A stretch of DNA of 64,000 nt. Source: a bacterium. GTDB lineage: Bacteria > Patescibacteriota > Minisyncoccia > Phycocordibacterales > GWA1-40-21. Shown one piece after another: positions 1-14,476 of this stretch (the stretch's first letter is position 1; each line of letters begins with the position of its first letter). The stretch spans positions 1,094-65,093 of the forward strand of contig JBAXQJ010000004.1 in NCBI GenBank assembly GCA_037131755.1, given 5' to 3'. Below the pieces are notes generated by a model. That model saw only the letters and a program-made list of their open reading frames with translations, was not told where the DNA came from and made no database searches. A program made the translations under genes and the position numbers.

Positions 1-521
1 TATTCAAAAATAGTCTTAGAAACTAAATTCCAAAACTTTTGCGAATGATTAAATTCTTTCAGATGACAAAGCTCATGGACAATTATGTAATTAACTAGTT
101 TATCAGGCAACAGAACAATTTTATAATTAAAATTCAGGTTACCTTTTCTTGAACAGCTACCCCAGCGTGTTTTCTGATTCTTAATATTTATTTTGTTAAA
201 TCTAATCTTATAAATCTTATTGAACTTAGCCACTTTCTTCTCGGCTAACTCCTGAGCTTGCTGTTTATACTTTGTATAATCGGCATCAGAATTTTTAGTA
301 ATAAATGTTTTACTAAATGATCCAAAATAATCGAGCTTATCCAATATCCATTGAGATTTTTTTATTATAAACTGTTCAATTGTGTTCACGGCAATATTGG
401 TCGGAGCAGTAACTACAAAATTACCGTCACAATAAATTGCCAGTCTCATTCTTCGAGCTCGGTTGCTTACCTTTATAGTATATTCAACTTTTCTTTTATG
501 TAGCTCGATGTGTTTTTTCAT
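1..521 (-). CDS. DUF45/YgjP-like zinc metallohydrolase (partial; C-terminus runs off window start)
   Basis: Unlisted minus-strand ORF with ATG at 521-519, 3 nt after the hsdR stop. Own translation: MKKHIELHKRKVEYTIKVSNRARRMRLAIY...TRWGSCSRKGNLNFNYKIVLLPDKLVNYIIVHELCHLKEFNHSQKFW. The HELCH...H (HExxH) motif and TRWGSC segment are typical of DUF45 proteins that often sit beside Type I R-M loci. Confidence 0.6.
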   Translation of the reverse strand, partial: MKKHIELHKRKVEYTIKVSNRARRMRLAIYCDGNFVVTAPTNIAVNTIEQFIIKKSQWILDKLDYFGSFSKTFITKNSDADYTKYKQQAQELAEKKVAKFNKIYKIRFNKINIKNQKTRWGSCSRKGNLNFNYKIVLLPDKLVNYIIVHELCHLKEFNHSQKFWNLVSKTIFE

Positions 522-524
522 AAG

Positions 525-3440
525 CTAGAATTTCTTAATGACAATATCAATTAAACGATTAAGATACTTATTAAAATCTGAAACCTTTATTTGATCTTTA
601 TAATCCTTGAGAATTAGTTCTTGAAGTGTCCGCTTGGCTTCCTTTAAAAACTCTTCACGTTTCGATGAATCCTGCCAGCCGTCATCTAAGATGTCGGCTA
701 ATCGTGCCGCCATTTCTTTAATAAATTCTTTAACAATAGTTTCATCGGAGTCGCTAATAAATTCTTCGGACACGACAAATAACCCATACTCACCGAGCGA
801 ATAACCAAGTCCCTTGGCTTCTTCTGCCTTAGTCTTGATATCATTCATTAATTCATAGTAGCGCTTGATTCGTTCTGCTAAATCTATTTGATGTTTTTCA
901 AATTCTTGTCGAATGGCACTTAGTCTTTCACTGAACTTCTTAAAGGCTGGATGTGTATCGATATTAATCGATATCTCTCGCTTAAGCATCTTCTCAAGAT
1001 TAAGTGCCTTTTCGTCTTCGTTCATCTTGTCCAAGCGTTCAAGTGTATATAAATCATTAACCTTTAATTCTCTAAAATTTTTGGTTATGCCTTCATAGTC
1101 AATTTTTTCCTGAATAAGACTTTTAATTTTGCCGCCATATTCTGCCAAAGAAAAAGCATCGACACCGTCATCATCTTGGAACTCTTTTACAAAGGCTAAA
1201 TAAAAACTAGTAACCCACTCAAAAGTACGAATATACTCCATTAAGAATGGATCAGGCGATAGGATTTCGAATAGCATCTTAAGACGTGCGTATTTGTCCT
1301 TAAAAAATTGCTGCTTATTTTGATTATCAATAAAAATCTTGAGACAACGACGCAAATTATCAATTGATGGGTCTTCAATATTTACACCTGTAAATAATTC
1401 CATCACCTCTTCAATTACTTTAACAAATTCCTTTTTAAGACGTTCAATATCGATCATTGCGCTATCAACCACGCTCTCGTCAAAGTTGAGCGCATCATAA
1501 AGATTTTTGGTAACACCATAATAATCGATAATCTTGCCACACCCTTTATTTGGATAAACTCTATTTGTGCGAGCGATTGCCTGCAGTAGATTATGGTCTC
1601 TTAATGGTTTGTCCAAATACATAACCTGCTCAACTGGAGCATCAAATCCAGTCAATAGCATGTCACAAACTAATAAAAATTTAAGTGGGTGGCTTGCATC
1701 TTTAAACTGCTCTATAACCTTCTCTCGTTTTTGCTTATTAGTATTATATTTTTTTAGATCGTCGCTATCGCTATTAGGATCGCCGGGCGAGTAAACAACT
1801 TCTGACCATTCTGCTGGCACTAACTTATCAAGCATCTCCTTGTATTTTGCAGTTGCTTCACGATCGTAACATACAATCTGTGCTTTAAAACCATTCGGCA
1901 AAACATATAACTTGTAATGCTCAACGATATCCTGAATTACCGCTTCCATGCGTTTTTCAAGTTTAACTAAAGCTTCTTTTTTGCCATATTTTTTCATTAG
2001 CAACTCCCTCTGGCTATCATTGAGATCTGCGGTCATTTCCGCAAACTGCTTATCAAGCTTTTCTTCATCAACAAAAAACTTTGACAGCCTTGCTTCGTAG
2101 GTAACTGGTAATGTTGCGCCATCATCAATAGCTTGTTGAATTGAGTAGTAATCTAAATAACGCTCACCCTCTTCACCAAAGTTGCGGTGGGTATTTAATG
2201 TAAGTTTATCAATAGGGGTACCAGTAAAGCCAAAGAAAAAAGCGTTCTTAAACGCATTGCGCATCTTTATCGCAGAAATACCTTCATTATCACGATGAGC
2301 CTCGTCTGAAAGCACAATCACATTGCCTTCGATAGCTTCTACGTCCTGCAATTCATTAAACTTTTGAATAGTGGAAATAAATATACCCCTGTCAGCTCCC
2401 TTAATCTTTTTCTCTAAATCCTTTCGAGATTCAACTCGAATTAAGTTTTGTCCACCCCATGCTTCAAACTCATCAAAAACTTGTTGGTCTAGATCAATGC
2501 GATCAATTAATATAAATACCTTAGGATTTTTTAGCTGTTCATCAAATCGTAATTTCCAAGCAGCAAAAAACATAGTCAGGGTTTTTCCTGATCCTTGCGT
2601 ATGCCAAATTAAACCCTTCATTAATTCGCCATCCTTAACACGGCTAACAATCTTATTGGTAGCATAAAGTTGCTGATATCGAGCAATCTTCTTTGTATAA
2701 CTATCTTTCTTCTTCTCAAATACAATAAAGTTTTTAATAATATCTAAGACCTGAGTTTTGTCTAACAAATAATGTAGAGTTAAATCTAATTCTTCGTCAT
2801 ACTTCTTATTGCCACCGTGCAAATCTTCACGCCAAGTTAAAAAATATTGTTTTGGAGAATATGTTGCACCATAAACAGTTTTCAGTCCGTCCGTAGAGAT
2901 GTTAAAGCAATTAGGTAAAAATAATTTTGGCGCAACCTTTTCATACCGCTTAATCTGATCAATAGCATTTTCAAAATTAACGCTACTTGAGGCGGTGGGG
3001 CTTTTTGCTTCAATATCGCAAATCGGCAAACCATTGATAAAAATCATTACATCTGGTCGAATGTTTTCTGTCACACCCTCAAAGTAAAACTGATTGGTCA
3101 CAATAAATTGATTATTATCAATATTATCAAAATCAATAATCTTATAATCCTTAAACTGTCCAGAAGCAGGGTCTTTTATGTTTATGCCGTTTCTTAAGAC
3201 GAATAAAAATGACTCATTGGTGTCCAATTTCTTTACTTCACGAACTACGCTTTGAGCGATATCGTCGGTCGAATTATTAATTCTCTTAACTGCCTCTAAA
3301 AGATGTGGTGAAATAATATATTCATTTTCAAATATTCTCAGTTTAGAAAATTCATCAGCGCGAATATATTTATAACCGAGATTATCGGCAATAAATTTAA
3401 TTACATGGTTTTCGATCGTATGTTGTTCGTTAAATTTCAT
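525..3440 (-). CDS. hsdR: Type I restriction enzyme R subunit (HsdR)
   Basis: 971 aa; SF2 helicase motifs (HTQGSGKTLTMF Walker A, VLSDEAHRDNEG DEAH box); N-terminal nuclease-like region; adjacent to HsdM/S gene. Confidence 0.85.
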   Translation of the reverse strand: MKFNEQHTIENHVIKFIADNLGYKYIRADEFSKLRIFENEYIISPHLLEAVKRINNSTDDIAQSVVREVKKLDTNESFLFVLRNGINIKDPASGQFKDYKIIDFDNIDNNQFIVTNQFYFEGVTENIRPDVMIFINGLPICDIEAKSPTASSSVNFENAIDQIKRYEKVAPKLFLPNCFNISTDGLKTVYGATYSPKQYFLTWREDLHGGNKKYDEELDLTLHYLLDKTQVLDIIKNFIVFEKKKDSYTKKIARYQQLYATNKIVSRVKDGELMKGLIWHTQGSGKTLTMFFAAWKLRFDEQLKNPKVFILIDRIDLDQQVFDEFEAWGGQNLIRVESRKDLEKKIKGADRGIFISTIQKFNELQDVEAIEGNVIVLSDEAHRDNEGISAIKMRNAFKNAFFFGFTGTPIDKLTLNTHRNFGEEGERYLDYYSIQQAIDDGATLPVTYEARLSKFFVDEEKLDKQFAEMTADLNDSQRELLMKKYGKKEALVKLEKRMEAVIQDIVEHYKLYVLPNGFKAQIVCYDREATAKYKEMLDKLVPAEWSEVVYSPGDPNSDSDDLKKYNTNKQKREKVIEQFKDASHPLKFLLVCDMLLTGFDAPVEQVMYLDKPLRDHNLLQAIARTNRVYPNKGCGKIIDYYGVTKNLYDALNFDESVVDSAMIDIERLKKEFVKVIEEVMELFTGVNIEDPSIDNLRRCLKIFIDNQNKQQFFKDKYARLKMLFEILSPDPFLMEYIRTFEWVTSFYLAFVKEFQDDDGVDAFSLAEYGGKIKSLIQEKIDYEGITKNFRELKVNDLYTLERLDKMNEDEKALNLEKMLKREISINIDTHPAFKKFSERLSAIRQEFEKHQIDLAERIKRYYELMNDIKTKAEEAKGLGYSLGEYGLFVVSEEFISDSDETIVKEFIKEMAARLADILDDGWQDSSKREEFLKEAKRTLQELILKDYKDQIKVSDFNKYLNRLIDIVIKKF

Positions 3441-3460
3441 ATTTTTAGCAGCCTGAAAGA

Positions 3461-5725
3461 TTAGATCTTTTTGTTAAATAAACTATTTATCAATCCTCTT
3501 TTTCTCTGCATATACTTATCTAGCAATTGTTGTCTTAACTCCGCTTCACGCTTTACAGCTTCAAGTATGCTCGCTATTTCTTTTTGTTCATCTTCAGATG
3601 TGGGCAAATACAAGCTTTTTGACAAAAATTTTGTATTTGAAATATTGATAGTATTTTTTGCACCTTTTGATACTATGGTTTGTAGGTAATTATTTGTATT
3701 AATATTAGATTCAAAATACGCATCCAATATTACTCCTATAAAGTAATTTTTCGGCTCAAAAACTCCATACAAAGGAGAAACGATAGCATCCGTAGTAATT
3801 TTGCTTTGTTTAATTATACCGTAAGGGAAATCTCCTGTTGGACTCTTTGTATATATAATATCTCCAGGTCTAACAAGTTTATATTTTGAAGTGTCTTTTG
3901 CTGAATATGATCTGCCCAAATGCTCTATTTGGTTTACGACTCCCTTTTTTACAGATACAGAATGAACCTCTTCTTTTCCTGTGCTGAACAACTTATGTTC
4001 AGTTAAAACATCGCTAAGAAGAGTGTCCTTCCATTTATCCTTAGTAACTTGGCGCTTAGTTAAATCCAGGATACTAGCTTTGTATTTCTTTAGCTCCTCC
4101 TCAATAGAGTTTATTTCATTTTCTAAAGCTTCCAAGTCAACATCGATCTCTTTTTTAGAGGTGTCAACATAGCGCCTAATATCTAAATTAAAATCATTCT
4201 CAATAATTTTATTAAGAGATACTATTTCTGAATAATTTTTTATTGACTCAAATGACTCAAATGTATTAATAATTTTTTTTATATCTGATACACGCAATCT
4301 ATTTTGTTTTTTATCAATCTCAAAACCTTCCTCTGCACTTATTATCAAAATCTTATTCTTTTTTTCGGGAGATTTATTTTTGTTGAGAATAACAATTACA
4401 GCCGGAATTTTTGTTCCATAAAATAACTTTTGTGGCAATGATATAATTCCTTCTATGAGATCATTATTTAGAATAGCCTCCCTAATTTTTCCCTCAGAAC
4501 CGCCACGAAATAATACTCCATGTGGCAAAACAATTCCTGCACGACCATTTTCATTCATAGACTTAATTATATGCAAGATGAAAGCAAAGTCCGCATTTTT
4601 ATCTGGTGGCATTTCATATCCAGCTAGTCTGCCATATTTATTTGTTTTAAATACTTCCCACTCCCAATCTTTAATCGAATAGGGAGGATTTGCAACTACT
4701 ATATCAAAGCTCTGTAGCCCACCATGTTGGTTTAAAAATTGAGGATTAGCCAAGGTGTCGCCTCGACGAATATCAGCACTATCAAGACCATGAAGGAACA
4801 TATTTATACGAGCAATTGCAAAAGTACTTAAATTTACCTCCTGGCCATAGAGATATAAGGTTTTTGCTATTTTTTCACCAGATTTATTTTTTAGATAATC
4901 ATATGCCTCAAGCAAAAACCCACCCGAACCGACTGTTGGGTCGTATATGTGATCTTTCTGGTGTGGCTTTAATATGCCAATAATAACTTTTTCAACTTCT
5001 CTCGGAGTGTAAAATTCACCACCTTTTTTTCCTGCATCTGCTGCAAATTGTTTTATTAGGTATTCATAAGCATCACCAAGCAAATCTGAGCTGATATAGT
5101 TACTTCCAAAATTATATTGCGAAAAATGATTAATAAGTTTCTGCAGAGTTTCGTTTGGAAAGCGATCCTTGTTAGCAAAATCAAGATCGTCAAAAATTTT
5201 GTCGAGTTTAGGACTATTGGCATTGGTTAGCTTTTCAAAAATCTCATTTAGCTTTTGACCGATACCATCAGCTTGTTCTGTGATTACAGTCCAACGACAA
5301 TCTTTAGGAACTTGGAAACGATGATTGTAGTCAGCACGGGCTATATCTTCATTATTATATTCGTCCATTACTTTCTGATATTCTTCATCCCAAACATCGC
5401 TGATACGTTTATAAAACAACAATCCAAAGATATATTTTTTATAATCCGAGCTGTCAATTTTGCCACGCAAGATGTCAGCACTTTTCCAAAGCATTGCCTC
5501 GAGTTGGGGTAGTGTAAGTTGACTACCCATTTTATCAACGATGGCTTCAATGTCTTGTGGGCGATATTTGCGATCACCACGTTTTCCAGCTCTAAGTGGA
5601 ACCAAAATTCCATCCTTTTCCCAATTACGAAGAGTGTCTTGATGAATTGAGAAAATTTCAGCTACCTGACTAATAGAAAGAAGCTCTGGCATGCCTTTTA
5701 ATTTTTCTTGTATGTCTTTGCGCAT
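3461..5725 (-). CDS. hsdM: Type I R-M methyltransferase fused to a single HsdS target-recognition domain, with N-terminal MerR/Xis-like HTH
   Basis: 754 aa. N-terminal LSISQVAEIFSIHQDTLRNWEKDGILVPLR helix-turn-helix; HsdM N-domain (LWKSADILRG...LLFYKRISD); N6-adenine MTase motif VVANPPYS; C-terminal about 230 aa resemble an HsdS TRD plus conserved helix (LVRPGDIIYT...ISNTKFLSKSLYLPTSEDEQKEIASILEAV). Confidence 0.75.
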   Translation of the reverse strand: MRKDIQEKLKGMPELLSISQVAEIFSIHQDTLRNWEKDGILVPLRAGKRGDRKYRPQDIEAIVDKMGSQLTLPQLEAMLWKSADILRGKIDSSDYKKYIFGLLFYKRISDVWDEEYQKVMDEYNNEDIARADYNHRFQVPKDCRWTVITEQADGIGQKLNEIFEKLTNANSPKLDKIFDDLDFANKDRFPNETLQKLINHFSQYNFGSNYISSDLLGDAYEYLIKQFAADAGKKGGEFYTPREVEKVIIGILKPHQKDHIYDPTVGSGGFLLEAYDYLKNKSGEKIAKTLYLYGQEVNLSTFAIARINMFLHGLDSADIRRGDTLANPQFLNQHGGLQSFDIVVANPPYSIKDWEWEVFKTNKYGRLAGYEMPPDKNADFAFILHIIKSMNENGRAGIVLPHGVLFRGGSEGKIREAILNNDLIEGIISLPQKLFYGTKIPAVIVILNKNKSPEKKNKILIISAEEGFEIDKKQNRLRVSDIKKIINTFESFESIKNYSEIVSLNKIIENDFNLDIRRYVDTSKKEIDVDLEALENEINSIEEELKKYKASILDLTKRQVTKDKWKDTLLSDVLTEHKLFSTGKEEVHSVSVKKGVVNQIEHLGRSYSAKDTSKYKLVRPGDIIYTKSPTGDFPYGIIKQSKITTDAIVSPLYGVFEPKNYFIGVILDAYFESNINTNNYLQTIVSKGAKNTINISNTKFLSKSLYLPTSEDEQKEIASILEAVKREAELRQQLLDKYMQRKRGLINSLFNKKI

Positions 5726-5785
5726 ATTTTATGGATTAATAATCTTAATCCTAGTATACATCAAATATTTTGTAAAGTCAATCGT

Positions 5786-5805
5786 TCATAGGTTATCATA
5801 GGTTA
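5786..5805. promoter_or_regulatory. tandem direct repeat tcataggtta x2 in divergent hsdM / recombinase promoter region
   Basis: Perfect 10-bp tandem duplication in the 181-bp intergenic region between divergent genes. Confidence 0.3.
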
Positions 5806-5906
5806 AGATAATTTATCACTATATTTATTATAGTAATATTAGGCATTTTTAAGGGACTTGGGACGCTCTGGACTCTTCTGTAGATATGCGTCATCAATGT
5901 TAGTAT

Positions 5907-7226
5907 ATGAATACAATACAAATGCCCGTAGGGGTGACGAGCAAAATAATCACCCCAGTTAAGGCAAAATACTGCCTTTATGCCCGAAAATCGACCGAAA
6001 GCGAGGAAAGGCAGGTCTTATCAATAGATAGCCAAATTAAGGAGATGCTTGAGCTGGCTGAACGAGAGCAACTGGACATCGTAGAACTCAAAAGAGAGTC
6101 TCACAGCGCTAAAGAGGCTGGACAGCGACCAGTTTTTAATGAAATTATAGCCGAGATAAAGGAGGGTAAATTTAATGCCATTTTGACATGGGCTCCTGAC
6201 CGTATATCAAGAAATGCAGGCGACCTAGGCAAAATTGTGGATTTAATGGATTCTGGTGCCCTGCTTGAGATAAGGACATATGGTCAGAAATTTAGCAATA
6301 ACCCGAACGAGAAGTTTCTGCTCATGATTCTCGGATCACAAGCCAAACTTGAAAACGACAACAGAGGCATTAATGTCAGACGAGGACTAAGGACTAGGGC
6401 TGAGATGGGTTTGTGGGTAGGTCTAGCACCGCTAGGCTATCTGAACCAAAGACGGATGGACAAGAAGTGCCAAGTGGTAGTTGATCCGCTACGTGCGCCA
6501 GCCATCAAGCAGATGTTTGAGAAAATGGCTTACGAAAAGTTTAGTGGGCGAAAATTATTCAACTGGCTCAAACATGATCTAAACTTTTACACCCGAGGCA
6601 ACAAGCCGCTAACGTTGGCTGGTGTTTATAGAATAATAAATAATCCATTCTACTACGGCGTATTTGAGCGACCAGTCGGTAGTGGCAACTGGTATCAAGG
6701 AAAACATAAGCCTCTAATTAGTAAGGACTTATACGACAAAGCACAAGCTCAATTAAAACGAGATCAAATTGTTAGAGAAAATAAAGAGTTTGCATTCACT
6801 AAACTATTCACTTGCGGTTATTGTGGCTCGGGCATATCGGCAGAGGAAAAATACAAACCGCTCAAGGACGGAACACATGCAAGATACATCTACTACTCCT
6901 GTTCGAGGGCACGAGATCGCAATTGCAAGAATAAATACATAAGAGAAGAAGAATTGATTACTGAACTGCTAAAAATATTAGACAAGGTAAATATTAACGA
7001 GCTAGGAATGCGGCAAAAACTGGAAGATGAAATTGCCAGATTCAATATCTTCCAACGATCAGTGCTTGGCGCAACTGATAAAATCAAAACCAACAAAGAA
7101 ATGGATATTAGAAACTATGCTAAATATCTACTCAAAGAGGGAGCGACATCGGATAAGCGAGAGTTGCTCGGAAATTTAAGGTCGAAGATAATGTACAAGG
7201 ATAAAGTATTAACTTTGATTGAATAG
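5907..7226 (+). CDS. large serine recombinase (resolvase/integrase family)
   Basis: 439 aa; N-terminal resolvase catalytic domain (CLYARKSTESEERQVLSIDSQ, catalytic Ser); recombinase domain; Cys-rich zinc ribbon (CGYCGSG...YYSCSRARDRNC). Confidence 0.8.
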   Translation: MNTIQMPVGVTSKIITPVKAKYCLYARKSTESEERQVLSIDSQIKEMLELAEREQLDIVELKRESHSAKEAGQRPVFNEIIAEIKEGKFNAILTWAPDRISRNAGDLGKIVDLMDSGALLEIRTYGQKFSNNPNEKFLLMILGSQAKLENDNRGINVRRGLRTRAEMGLWVGLAPLGYLNQRRMDKKCQVVVDPLRAPAIKQMFEKMAYEKFSGRKLFNWLKHDLNFYTRGNKPLTLAGVYRIINNPFYYGVFERPVGSGNWYQGKHKPLISKDLYDKAQAQLKRDQIVRENKEFAFTKLFTCGYCGSGISAEEKYKPLKDGTHARYIYYSCSRARDRNCKNKYIREEELITELLKILDKVNINELGMRQKLEDEIARFNIFQRSVLGATDKIKTNKEMDIRNYAKYLLKEGATSDKRELLGNLRSKIMYKDKVLTLIE

Positions 7227-7238
7227 CATTTAGCACCA

Positions 7239-8591
7239 TCAATAAGCTTTGAATAGACGGCGAATTAATTTTTTAAAATACCGTTTTAAAGAATTATCTC
7301 TATTTAGATATTTTGAAATAAAATCATTGGCGCTTTTTATTTCCACGCTTTTTAGCCAACTAATTATTTCTTTATTAATTTTGAGTGTTTCTATAGCGTC
7401 TTGATTATTCAACTCCTTGCCTCTATGTATTACTTCATTTCGTATTTTATCGTAATTTGTGCACCATCCATTCCATAGAATCGCACTTTCTTTTGATAAT
7501 TTTTTTTCAGATACTTCGAATACAAGATCTTTTATTCTGTCTTTTGTATTCCATTTTCTATTCAATATTGCTTGAACATCTTCGGGGCTCAACCCCTTTT
7601 TTATATAGGCAGAAAAAAGAAAATTTTCTAAAAATATTTCGAATGCTTGAAAAATTTTAACGACTGCTAAAGTATACGCCTTTTTACTAATAGACGACGC
7701 CCCGTCTAGCAATAATAACTCATACAACAATGGCATCTCGTCATTTTTTAGCATCAACTCAATCGTCTTGAGCATGTTTAACGGTCTATTCATTATCGCA
7801 TCACCTATGCCATACCCCAATGAACTTATATATAGATGATTGTTGTGATCAACAAAATATACGTTATTTATGTTCAAAGAACCTAATCTCTCAACATAAT
7901 CTTCTTGCGTAACATATCTATACACATCCAAAAGCTTATTAATAACCTCGAGTGAAATTTCTGAGATTGTATTAATCACAGAACTAATATTCTTATTTAT
8001 TTCTTCAATCTTAAAGTCAGTATCTATTTGAATAATGACTTTTGTGTATCTGAACGTCCCATTAGCATCTCTTTCTTTTTCAATGTTTTTACCAGTCCAA
8101 TGTTGTTGCCAACCAAGACTTTCATTTATGGGAAATTGGGGACCAGTCAATACCGTATCTTTGAAATAAGTAGTTTTATTTTCAGCTAAATAATCAGCAT
8201 AATCTGAGTCAACTGTTGAAGTAGTCCAGATTTTTTGAAGTCGGACGTTAGCGACATGTTCTTTCCCCTTGTAGTTAATATCAAAATCGTAGTTATTTGG
8301 CACATGTAGACAATATGGCAGAGTCGCTTCAATAATGGTATTACAATCAAATTCTTCTTTCAAAAATGATGGATCAGTCAATTGATAAACTGGCGATGTA
8401 GTTGTGATTATAAACGCCTTTTCTAGGTTTACTTTATTTAAATCATTAGTTAGCAATTGTTTCTGCTGATCTGACGATAATTTTTCAAATTCTTTTTTGT
8501 TAACCAAAACATAAAAATTAACCACCTCCTGTTTATTTTTAAGGTGGGACTTGGCTTGTATTTCTAATAATTGCCAATCTTTTTCAGTCAT
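7239..8591 (-). CDS. hypothetical protein with C-terminal HEPN-like motif (candidate Abi/defence effector)
   Basis: 450-aa ORF with no recognisable enzymatic domain apart from RNEVIHRG (Rx4H) near the C-terminus in a helical region. Sits in the island between the recombinase and tRNA-Ser. Confidence 0.5.
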   Translation of the reverse strand: MTEKDWQLLEIQAKSHLKNKQEVVNFYVLVNKKEFEKLSSDQQKQLLTNDLNKVNLEKAFIITTTSPVYQLTDPSFLKEEFDCNTIIEATLPYCLHVPNNYDFDINYKGKEHVANVRLQKIWTTSTVDSDYADYLAENKTTYFKDTVLTGPQFPINESLGWQQHWTGKNIEKERDANGTFRYTKVIIQIDTDFKIEEINKNISSVINTISEISLEVINKLLDVYRYVTQEDYVERLGSLNINNVYFVDHNNHLYISSLGYGIGDAIMNRPLNMLKTIELMLKNDEMPLLYELLLLDGASSISKKAYTLAVVKIFQAFEIFLENFLFSAYIKKGLSPEDVQAILNRKWNTKDRIKDLVFEVSEKKLSKESAILWNGWCTNYDKIRNEVIHRGKELNNQDAIETLKINKEIISWLKSVEIKSANDFISKYLNRDNSLKRYFKKLIRRLFKAY

Positions 8592-8655
8592 ATGTATATT
8601 ATACCAAAAATGCCCCTAATAGGGGCATTCGGGTCTATCCGATACTAAATTGTAT

Positions 8656-8747
8656 TGGCGGAGACGGCGAGATTCGAACTCGCGGAGCCCTATAAGAGGC
8701 TCACCTCTTTAGCAAAGAGGCACATTAGACCACTCTGACACGTCTCC
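8656..8747 (-). tRNA. tRNA-Ser (anticodon GCU), CCA encoded
   Basis: Manual fold of GGAGACGTGTCAGAGTGGTCTAATGTGCCTCTTTGCTAAAGAGGTGAGCCTCTTATAGGGCTCCGCGAGTTCGAATCTCGCCGTCTCCGCCA: 7-bp acceptor, anticodon loop TTGCTAA, long variable arm, TTCGAAT T-loop. Confidence 0.8.
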
Positions 8748-8794
8748 AGAAACTGTTTATTCAATTGTTATATCTTCAAAAGAATCAACGTCTG

Positions 8795-8932
8795 GGTCCT
8801 CTTTAGCAAAGAGGCACATTAGGTCACAAGTTTTTGTCTGCTGACAAAACTCGCGACCCCGACTCGCGCCGTCGCGCTCCGTCTTTGATTTGCTCCACGT
8901 ATTCGCAAAGCAACACCCTGACACGTCTCCAA
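8795..8932 (-). pseudogene. duplicated 5' half of tRNA-Ser interrupted by about 96-bp insertion in the D-loop
   Basis: cctctttagcaaagaggcacattag (8795-8820) and ctgacacgtctcca (8919-8932) are identical to the intact tRNA segments 8705-8749; the 6 nt between them are replaced by about 96 nt. Confidence 0.5.
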
Positions 8933-9098
8933 AAATCATAACAAAATAAGACTATCATATTAAATCCGTTTTTTCTAGTCACGCTCTTAAACAAAGATCT
9001 GACTGATCTCAAGCTGATCTTCTCGGTCCGTCTCTCGCCTATCAGGAAAAACTTAACAAGAAAAACACCCGGTCAAAACCAGGTGCGAAAGCCATTAT

Positions 9099-9485
9099 TT
9101 AATTCTGTTGATTTCTCCGACGAAAGATCTCCTGGCGGACTTCGAGCAATTTAGGCAGAACTTTCTTCCAAACAACCTCTTCATACTCGTAAAAATGGAT
9201 AACCAGCACCGCGACGACCATTCTCGGATGATGATTCTTAAACCTGGTCGCGGCCACCCAACTTGATTTTACCTGCACGTACAGAGAACCGATGTCTCGC
9301 GTTTCCACCACGAGATCAATCCCGCGGGTATCCTCTTCCTTCGTGGCAAATCGCACAGTCTTGAACCAGTCAAGACCATAGGCAAATTTTAATATGGCTT
9401 CAAATGTCCGTTCTTCCGCCTTCTTACCCTTGGCCAATTCGACATGGCCGAGCCGGCGATCGGCAAAAACAGCTTGATTGTTCAT
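9099..9485 (-). CDS. hypothetical protein
   Basis: 128-aa ORF; no confident domain assignment. Confidence 0.45.
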   Translation of the reverse strand: MNNQAVFADRRLGHVELAKGKKAEERTFEAILKFAYGLDWFKTVRFATKEEDTRGIDLVVETRDIGSLYVQVKSSWVAATRFKNHHPRMVVAVLVIHFYEYEEVVWKKVLPKLLEVRQEIFRRRNQQN

Positions 9486-14288: not shown

Positions 14289-14361
14289 GCGCGTGTAGCT
14301 CAGTTGGTAGAGCGGTCGTCTTATACACGACTGGTCCCAGGTTCGAATCCTGGCACGCGCA
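14289..14361 (+). tRNA. tRNA-Ile (anticodon UAU)
   Basis: Manual cloverleaf of GCGCGTGTAGCTCAGTTGGTAGAGCGGTCGTCTTATACACGACTGGTCCCAGGTTCGAATCCTGGCACGCGCA: perfect 7-bp acceptor, 5-bp anticodon stem GTCGT/ACGAC, loop CTTATAC (U33, anticodon TAT, A37), discriminator A, no encoded CCA. Confidence 0.75.
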
Positions 14362-14476
14362 CAAACTAAAGCCGGGTTTTCATCAGATGAAAACCCGGCT
14401 GAGTATTTTATATGATTGGTCGCCAAGGTCTCACCTTTCCCGTCGCCGACTCCTCCCCAAGGAGAGACCTTGTCGC

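Follow-up and report, generated by a model that had tools for sequence, protein, structure and literature searches.

Within a stretch of 64,000 nucleotides from a Patescibacteriota genome (assembly GCA_037131755.1, contig JBAXQJ010000004.1, positions 1,094 to 65,093; hereafter the window), the gene at 7239..8591 on the minus strand, which we call the HEPN gene, encodes a two-domain protein of an uncharacterised family that joins a canonical HEPN domain, a predicted ribonuclease (RNase), to a novel N-terminal domain. We consider it moderately likely that this protein is a self-sufficient HEPN RNase, triggered by infection and carried for defence as cargo of an integrative island. The open reading frame (ORF) and its translation are complete, with an ATG at 8591, a stop codon at 7239-7241 and 450 aa plus stop, and an identical protein (P0001) is found in an NCBI metagenome-assembled genome (MAG), where it is annotated as 'hypothetical protein'. 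An initial annotation, made from the letters alone, had described a 450-aa ORF carrying RNEVIHRG near its C-terminus, with no recognisable catalytic domain and lying between a recombinase and a transfer RNA (tRNA) gene in a restriction-modification (R-M) island; all of this holds, and the strand, which it left unstated, is the minus strand.

RNEVIHRG corresponds to residues 384-391, and the predicted catalytic motif within it, R384-N-E-V-I-H389 (7425..7442, minus strand), is of the Rx4H type and stands at the C-terminal end of helix 3 of the HEPN domain. By itself such a motif does not exceed chance expectation (Rx4H occurs in 19% and Rx4-6H in 48% of shuffles of the 450-aa protein), and it is meaningful because it is conserved and structurally well placed. 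A search of 5.8 billion proteins gave 33 relatives, nearly all metagenomic, with 33-49% identity across ~90% of the length. When 1.84 billion representatives were searched exhaustively with a profile, 81 clusters, counted at 50% identity, fell under E<1e-30 and 1,181 reached E<=1e-3; the family profile spans residues 15-424 of the window protein. R384, N385 and H389 are conserved at >=90% in the 33-sequence alignment, the single exception being a truncated copy, and Rx4H is kept at the equivalent site in 62/62 full-length representatives. The close family has the full architecture of 410-450 aa, and a distant shell consists mostly of proteins of 300-350 aa that align from about position 80 of the profile to its end, lacking only the first ~80 residues. 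Across 53 sequences of this shell, with ~20% identity to the query, the sole invariant residues are R384 and H389.

The structural context of the motif is that expected for a HEPN domain, which in the model occupies about residues 271-415 (7347..7781, minus strand). Its helices cover residues 289-302, 306-331 (with conserved Q315, E318 and E322), 370-390 and 396-415, and R384-H389 closes the helix 370-390 in the AlphaFold2 (AF2) model. A helical insert at 336-368, carrying W347, T349 and R352, lies between helices 306-331 and 370-390. This arrangement agrees with the published definition of the superfamily, a four-helix up-down bundle built from two alpha-hairpins, in which helices 2 and 3 are often separated by a helical insert (Anantharaman et al., 2013, PMC3710099). 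HEPN proteins also carry a polar N, D or H directly after the conserved R (PMC3710099); the corresponding N385 is kept at >=90%, with H, D, R or I as variants. A second conserved acidic residue is found in helix 2 of the superfamily, typically as Ex3[KR] (PMC3710099), and the equivalent helix 306-331 (FQALEIFLE) has E318 at >=90% and an invariant E322, the +4 position being neither K nor R. The reading of Rx4H as a HEPN signature, put forward in the initial annotation, is thus supported by R384 and H389 being conserved at the end of a helix, and neither a non-helical setting of the motif nor orthologues devoid of the R and H, which it had named as grounds for abandoning that reading, was found.

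The N-terminal domain (residues 1-268; 7788..8591, minus strand) is a beta-rich alpha/beta domain with a long helix at 202-228. It is confidently modelled and has no Pfam match and no convincing fold match in the PDB. Its recognisable motifs are LPYCLH(L/V)P at 92-98, KIWT at 120-123, GxFRYT at 178-183, N218 and YRY at 224-226, and strong conservation in this half falls on P92/Y93/C94/L95 (in LPYCLHLP), K120/W122/T123, G178/F180/R181 (in GxFRYT), N218, Y224/R225 and R235; P92, N218 and R225 are still kept in the distant shell. At the other end of the protein, the AF2 model, the alignment and the charge define an amphipathic basic helix (residues 422-450; 7242..7328, minus strand), which is modelled over 422-449 at lower confidence (predicted local distance difference test score about 68-76) in a tail, 416-450, of net charge +7. 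This C-terminal extension is present only in some members (P0008, P0009, P0016, P0020, P0021 and P0025).

The family is rare and patchy: a pattern scan of 185,579 species genomes gave four matches, in Bdellovibrionales, Gammaproteobacteria, Sedimentisphaerales and one unclassified MAG. Frameshifted or truncated copies whose break falls inside the HEPN domain recur (L018 187-1400, where the HEPN part resumes in frame 2, P0033, P0051, P0068 and P0081). Pseudogenes and assembly errors are the two explanations for these copies; were they real, such repeated inactivation would be consistent with a costly or toxic gene. A natural split into two genes was also considered, as there are N-only representatives of ~320 aa and HEPN-only representatives of ~150 aa, and was rejected: the former are frameshifted copies, and the latter begin at a conserved internal Met of an 'MNRS' motif and are most likely fragments from short contigs.

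Searches against curated models placed the protein in no named family. Pfam, NCBIfam and PADLOC have no model that matches the window protein, its sole PHROG match is a weak one to a family of unknown function (phrog_28299), sequence searches of the PDB with the single sequence and with the family profile gave no relative, and a Foldseek comparison of the whole model with the full PDB gave nothing at E<=1e-3; rows for the receptor-binding domain of SARS-CoV were dismissed as noise (probability ~0.1, root-mean-square deviation >15 A). Among the relatives, 10/33 weakly match Pfam HEPN_Apea (PF18739) over residues ~320-420. The best of them, P0028, scores 26.5 bits against a cut-off of 24.4 and is alone in exceeding it among the five members in which the cut-off was checked individually, P0011 falling just under at 24.3; the window protein has no match to HEPN_Apea at E<=1. 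In PADLOC, 18/33 members match a Csx1/Csm6 model solely across its HEPN part, and none of the 33 matches the whole-protein model of a known defence system.

Secure membership is in the HEPN superfamily only, and the closest functional resemblance is to single-gene HEPN defence proteins of the ApeA type. Like ApeA (Gao et al., 2020), the window protein is the product of one gene without a partner, has an RNxxxH-bearing HEPN domain in its C-terminal part, lacks known homologues for its N-terminal region, and is encoded in a defence island. However, it is 450 aa long against ~580-600 aa for ApeA, and its N-terminal domain is beta-rich, whereas the N and Mid domains of ApeA are predominantly helical, a catenin-like N-terminal and a PafA-like Mid domain being packed on a split HEPN domain (bioRxiv 10.64898/2026.01.26.701840, 10.64898/2026.03.20.713152). 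The ApeA models of PADLOC-DB v2 match neither the window protein nor any of the 33 members at E<=0.1. A ligand pocket, ring oligomers and tRNA targets have been described for ApeA. A further domain, 'ApeA-NTD1', was described as ~300 aa of 'mostly beta strands' with conserved aromatics, fused to an Apea HEPN domain (Anantharaman et al., 2013, PMC3710099); going by this description, it is conceivably related to the N-terminal domain of the window protein, which has no Pfam match.

Other HEPN systems differ more clearly. TT1696, AF0298 and the HepT/MntA type VII toxin-antitoxin (TA) systems have HEPN proteins of ~120-140 aa with an adjacent nucleotidyltransferase (MNT) antitoxin, whereas the HEPN domain of the window protein is fused to a 268-aa N-terminal domain and no MNT gene is adjacent; in contrast to type II and type VII TA systems in general, the gene is flanked by a tRNA gene 64 bp upstream and a recombinase gene 12 bp downstream. 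RnlA/LsoA, the type II toxins of the RNase LS kind, show weak similarities throughout, and the HEPN gene has no neighbour coding for an RnlB-type antitoxin, leaving membership in that group unsupported. Csm6 and Csx1 of type III CRISPR-Cas systems combine CARF with HEPN, and a CARF/Csx1 reading was ruled out: the similarity seen with PADLOC is confined to the HEPN portion of the model, a CARF domain is missing from the window protein, the N-terminal domain gave no Rossmann-like or CARF structural matches, and no CRISPR-Cas neighbourhood was seen among the homologue loci examined. The initial annotation had ventured an Abi_2/AbiD-F-like effector. Although the Abi_2 proteins (AbiD, AbiD1 and AbiF) are likewise phage-defence proteins with a C-terminal HEPN domain, the Abi_2 profile (PF07751) matches none of the 33 family and 53 shell members and there are no upstream RNA repeats, so that the HEPN part of that interpretation stands and the Abi_2 label does not; a toxin or abortive-infection role may still reasonably be proposed.

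The genomic contexts of the family point to a gene that acts without a partner. Adding 41 metagenome loci and removing redundancy at 90% identity gave 42 distinct loci (L001-L060 plus the window), and no conserved partner gene stands beside the family gene across the loci examined; the adjacent antitoxin-like partner that the initial annotation advised looking for was likewise sought, and none is conserved. The small ORFs lying upstream in L007 (an Xre helix-turn-helix (HTH) protein), L015 and L014 are mutually unrelated and have no counterpart in the window, and no tandem repeats were found near the HEPN gene. Taken together, the lack of a conserved neighbour, the unrelated upstream ORFs and the absence of repeats make the HEPN gene look like a single-gene system. 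Some homologues lie near TIR proteins, an OLD-like ATPase-nuclease, PIN-MazE and IS91, others within a run of Eco57I, T5orf172, GmrSD and PDDEXK genes, further ones adjoin DNA methylases, and one is flanked by PIN_12 and DUF4209 proteins; a faint NTP_transf_5 neighbour is seen in L003 and L004 only. In a minority of the family, an AbiU2-type HEPN domain is fused to the C-terminus (P0029, E 6.8e-9; locus L014 1487-3385) or encoded directly downstream (L008 9343-9990, E 1.8e-7). Such 'two-HEPN' versions are a gene-fusion hint of a functional link, confined to two of about 43 loci; the window protein has neither an AbiU2 domain nor an AbiU2 neighbour.

A recurrent companion is a large serine recombinase. 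In the window, its gene (5907..7226, plus strand; Pfam Resolvase, Recombinase and Zn_ribbon_recom) is convergent with the HEPN gene, their stop codons being 12 bp apart, and a hidden Markov model scan of the whole 64 kb identified no other serine recombinase. Across the family, 13/42 distinct loci have a serine recombinase somewhere in the sequenced flank, 10 of the 21 loci having at least 6 kb of flank have one within ~5 kb, and in six distinct loci it lies less than 600 bp from the family gene, its side and orientation being variable. As genomes hold only a few such recombinases, proximity by chance would be around 1%, a rough figure, with no formal background behind the 10/21. At least eight loci have a tRNA gene next to the family gene or to the recombinase, and in the window a tRNA-Ser(GCU) gene (8656..8747, minus strand; ARAGORN, Rfam tRNA 51.8 bits, GC profile) lies 64 bp upstream of the HEPN gene on the same strand. 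The guanine-cytosine (GC) content steps at this point, from 0.35 over positions 1-8650 (0.31 in the HEPN gene itself) to 0.45 in the remaining window, and the tRNA gene is likely the integration landmark of the island. These associations suggest that the family is regularly carried by small islands that lie at tRNA genes and are mobilised by large serine recombinases.

In the mechanism that we propose, the HEPN domain (~271-415, with R384/N385/H389 as active site) is permanently joined to the N-terminal domain (1-268), and two copies of the protein would pair via their HEPN domains to form one composite, metal-independent RNase site. This pairing is suggested by analogy with every characterised catalytic HEPN protein, the superfamily being described as metal-independent endoribonucleases with a dimeric composite active site (PMC3710099). 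The N-terminal domain would most likely keep the RNase site inactive in the absence of a cue, either infection or foreign DNA. Once such a cue is sensed, the enzyme would become active and cleave RNA of the cell or of the invader (candidate targets being tRNA anticodon loops, mRNA and rRNA), bringing translation to a halt. The gene itself is carried by integrative islands at tRNA genes, mobilised by large serine recombinases, and its most likely role would be defence against phages or mobile elements without a partner gene, which we propose because it accompanies a type I R-M system and Hachiman. The ORF, the conserved motif, the HEPN fold, the want of a conserved partner and the neighbourhood of recombinase, tRNA and defence genes are observed, whereas we infer RNase activity, dimerisation, control by the N-terminal domain, the RNA target and the defence role from HEPN biology (PMC3710099) and from the recently solved single-protein defence enzymes ApeA and DARNA.

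Several observations weigh against such a defence role. PADLOC-DB v2 does not recognise the window protein as a known or candidate defence system, the defence-gene neighbourhood is an impression gained without a background comparison, and in L003, L009 and L010 the homologues lie amid ordinary metabolic genes. The N-terminal domain has a net charge of -11, which argues against a simple RNA-binding platform, and a profile search with this domain only, at word-index sensitivity, found it fused to no other effector, the architecture being the same throughout; as it never occurs on another effector, its role as a sensor is proposed by analogy and not from modularity. Relatives are absent from 50,697 phage genomes and from IMG/VR, and plasmids gave a single weak HEPN-only match, so that there is no link to cultured, testable hosts. 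An alternative that we hold to be unlikely is that the protein is not an anti-phage sensor but serves the serine-recombinase island as an addiction or stabilisation toxin. The HEPN RNase would then be curbed in cis by the N-terminal domain, or else by an antitoxin, an RNA or a small protein, that has escaped recognition, and it would harm cells losing the island or keep rival elements out of the attachment site that they share with it. The closeness of the recombinase in the window and in other loci and the existence of frameshifted copies would fit such a toxin, and HEPN domains are commonly the toxins of TA systems, for example in HepT/MntA and RnlA/LsoA (PMC3710099). However, the unrelated ORFs upstream of the homologues, together with their absence from the window, leave no candidate for a conserved small regulator or antitoxin, and the tandem repeats that would go with an RNA antitoxin like those of type III or AbiF systems are absent near the gene. 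In addition, about half of the loci have no recombinase, and its placement varies in the others, as would be expected of cargo more than of a functional pair. In many integrative islands, defence genes are simply carried beside the integrase.

A bolder version of the defence reading would take the N-terminal domain as a new fold that, together with its obligate HEPN partner, defines an unnamed single-gene immune or conflict system, and seems to us quite unlikely. In its most unusual form, the biology of the protein would be bound to serine recombinase islands, so that it would serve the island and not simply the cell, and its cue, a nucleic acid or a protein, would arise when a competitor or a phage attacks the tRNA attachment site of the island or the host. 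That the protein is a highly divergent but true ApeA member is distinctly improbable. It would then bind a ligand in a pocket where the N-terminal and HEPN domains meet, form ring oligomers of dimers and cleave tRNA anticodon loops or phage RNA. HEPN_Apea is indeed the best Pfam family of the homologues, the layout, one gene whose product has an uncharacterised N-terminal region ahead of a C-terminal HEPN domain with RNxxxH, recalls ApeA, whose own motif is RNKITH, and the description of 'ApeA-NTD1' (Anantharaman et al., 2013) resembles the N-terminal domain; nonetheless, the protein failed the comparison with ApeA both at the level of whole-protein models and at that of architecture. Least probable of all, and very unlikely, is a housekeeping or non-catalytic HEPN protein, engaged in RNA processing or in binding a nucleotide or other ligand and present in the island by accident. 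Some HEPN families are non-catalytic or take part in RNA maturation (PMC3710099), and a few homologue loci do lie among metabolic genes. Yet R-N-x3-H is strictly conserved, whereas non-catalytic HEPN proteins typically lose the signature (PMC3710099), and the rarity and patchiness of the family, the low-GC island around the window gene and the existence of pseudogenised copies also argue against it. An infection-triggered, single-protein RNase remains the best reading.

The rest of the island in the window is occupied by a type I R-M system identified with Pfam, comprising HsdR (525..3440, minus strand) and a methylase of MerR-HTH/HsdM type (3461..5725, minus strand). The latter has a MerR-type HTH at its N-terminus followed by HsdM_N and N6_Mtase to about residue 526, and its ~230 C-terminal residues have no Pfam assignment. 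No separate hsdS ORF lies between the methylase and hsdR genes, and the methylase tail may represent a fused specificity domain, a half target recognition domain. In another assembly, the island extends beyond the left edge of the window with a gene for a YgjP-like metalloprotease, HamA (PF08878) and a large ResIII/DEAD helicase of HamB type (L013 8192-11474; L012 18071-19193), which together would form a Hachiman system. Given this continuation, type I R-M, Hachiman and the HEPN gene are the minimum content of the island. No further copy of the 3' end or anticodon arm of tRNA-Ser, a repeat of which would mark the far boundary of the island, was found in the window or in the fetched loci.

A second, partial 5' half of tRNA-Ser is present at 8798-8935 on the minus strand. 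It consists of an acceptor/D-stem piece (8914-8935, 91% identical to the tRNA) and a D-arm/anticodon-arm piece (8798-8827, 93%), parted by a GC-rich insert of ~86 nt (8828-8913), and has no 3' half. A stretch of 151 nt covering it is not called a tRNA by Rfam and has a stable predicted fold (-60.8 kcal/mol, z -4.2). This partial copy may be the leftover of the original tRNA gene, broken by integration of an island that supplied the intact tRNA. The spacer at 8748-8797 is 50 bp long, AT-rich and island-like in look. Beyond the tRNA and just outside the low-GC island, a 128-aa ORF (9099-9485, minus strand) weakly matches both DUF4365 (E 0.005) and Mrr_cat, a restriction-endonuclease fold (E 0.047). 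ARAGORN also reports a tRNA-Ile with anticodon TAT (UAU) both in the window (14289-14362, plus strand) and in an unrelated homologue locus (L006 5557-5633); this anticodon is uncommon in bacteria and may be informative on the host lineage.

Two signals on the minus strand can be read directly in the short interval between tRNA-Ser and the HEPN gene. A GC-rich hairpin of 9 bp, AATGCCCCT-ATT-AGGGGCATT, followed by a T run (8609..8629), is absent from the output of the terminator scan and is probably the tRNA-Ser terminator, parting the tRNA from the HEPN gene. Downstream of it, a candidate extended -10 promoter, TGGTATAAT (8598..8606), ends 6 nt ahead of the HEPN-gene ATG; a consensus promoter scan that requires a -35 element does not list it. 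No Shine-Dalgarno sequence is visible ahead of the gene, and this, together with the short distance from TGGTATAAT to the ATG, suggests that the HEPN mRNA may be leaderless or nearly so.

ApeA, DARNA and HepS are model cases in which one polypeptide both senses infection and responds to it, each through a different sensing domain and trigger. To these the present family, with ~1,200 representative metagenome clusters and absent from PADLOC-DB v2, adds an N-terminal domain without a Pfam or convincing PDB match that is always joined to a canonical HEPN domain. An uncharacterised family of this composition is unsurprising in kind to a specialist, and should it prove inactive, or an addiction toxin, it would merely be another variant of HEPN toxin. 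Its frequent carriage beside large serine recombinases at tRNA genes also marks a class of small integrative islands as a place to look for new defence cargo. If the family is a defence system, its sensor fold would be new, and the trigger still to be discovered would probably be new as well.
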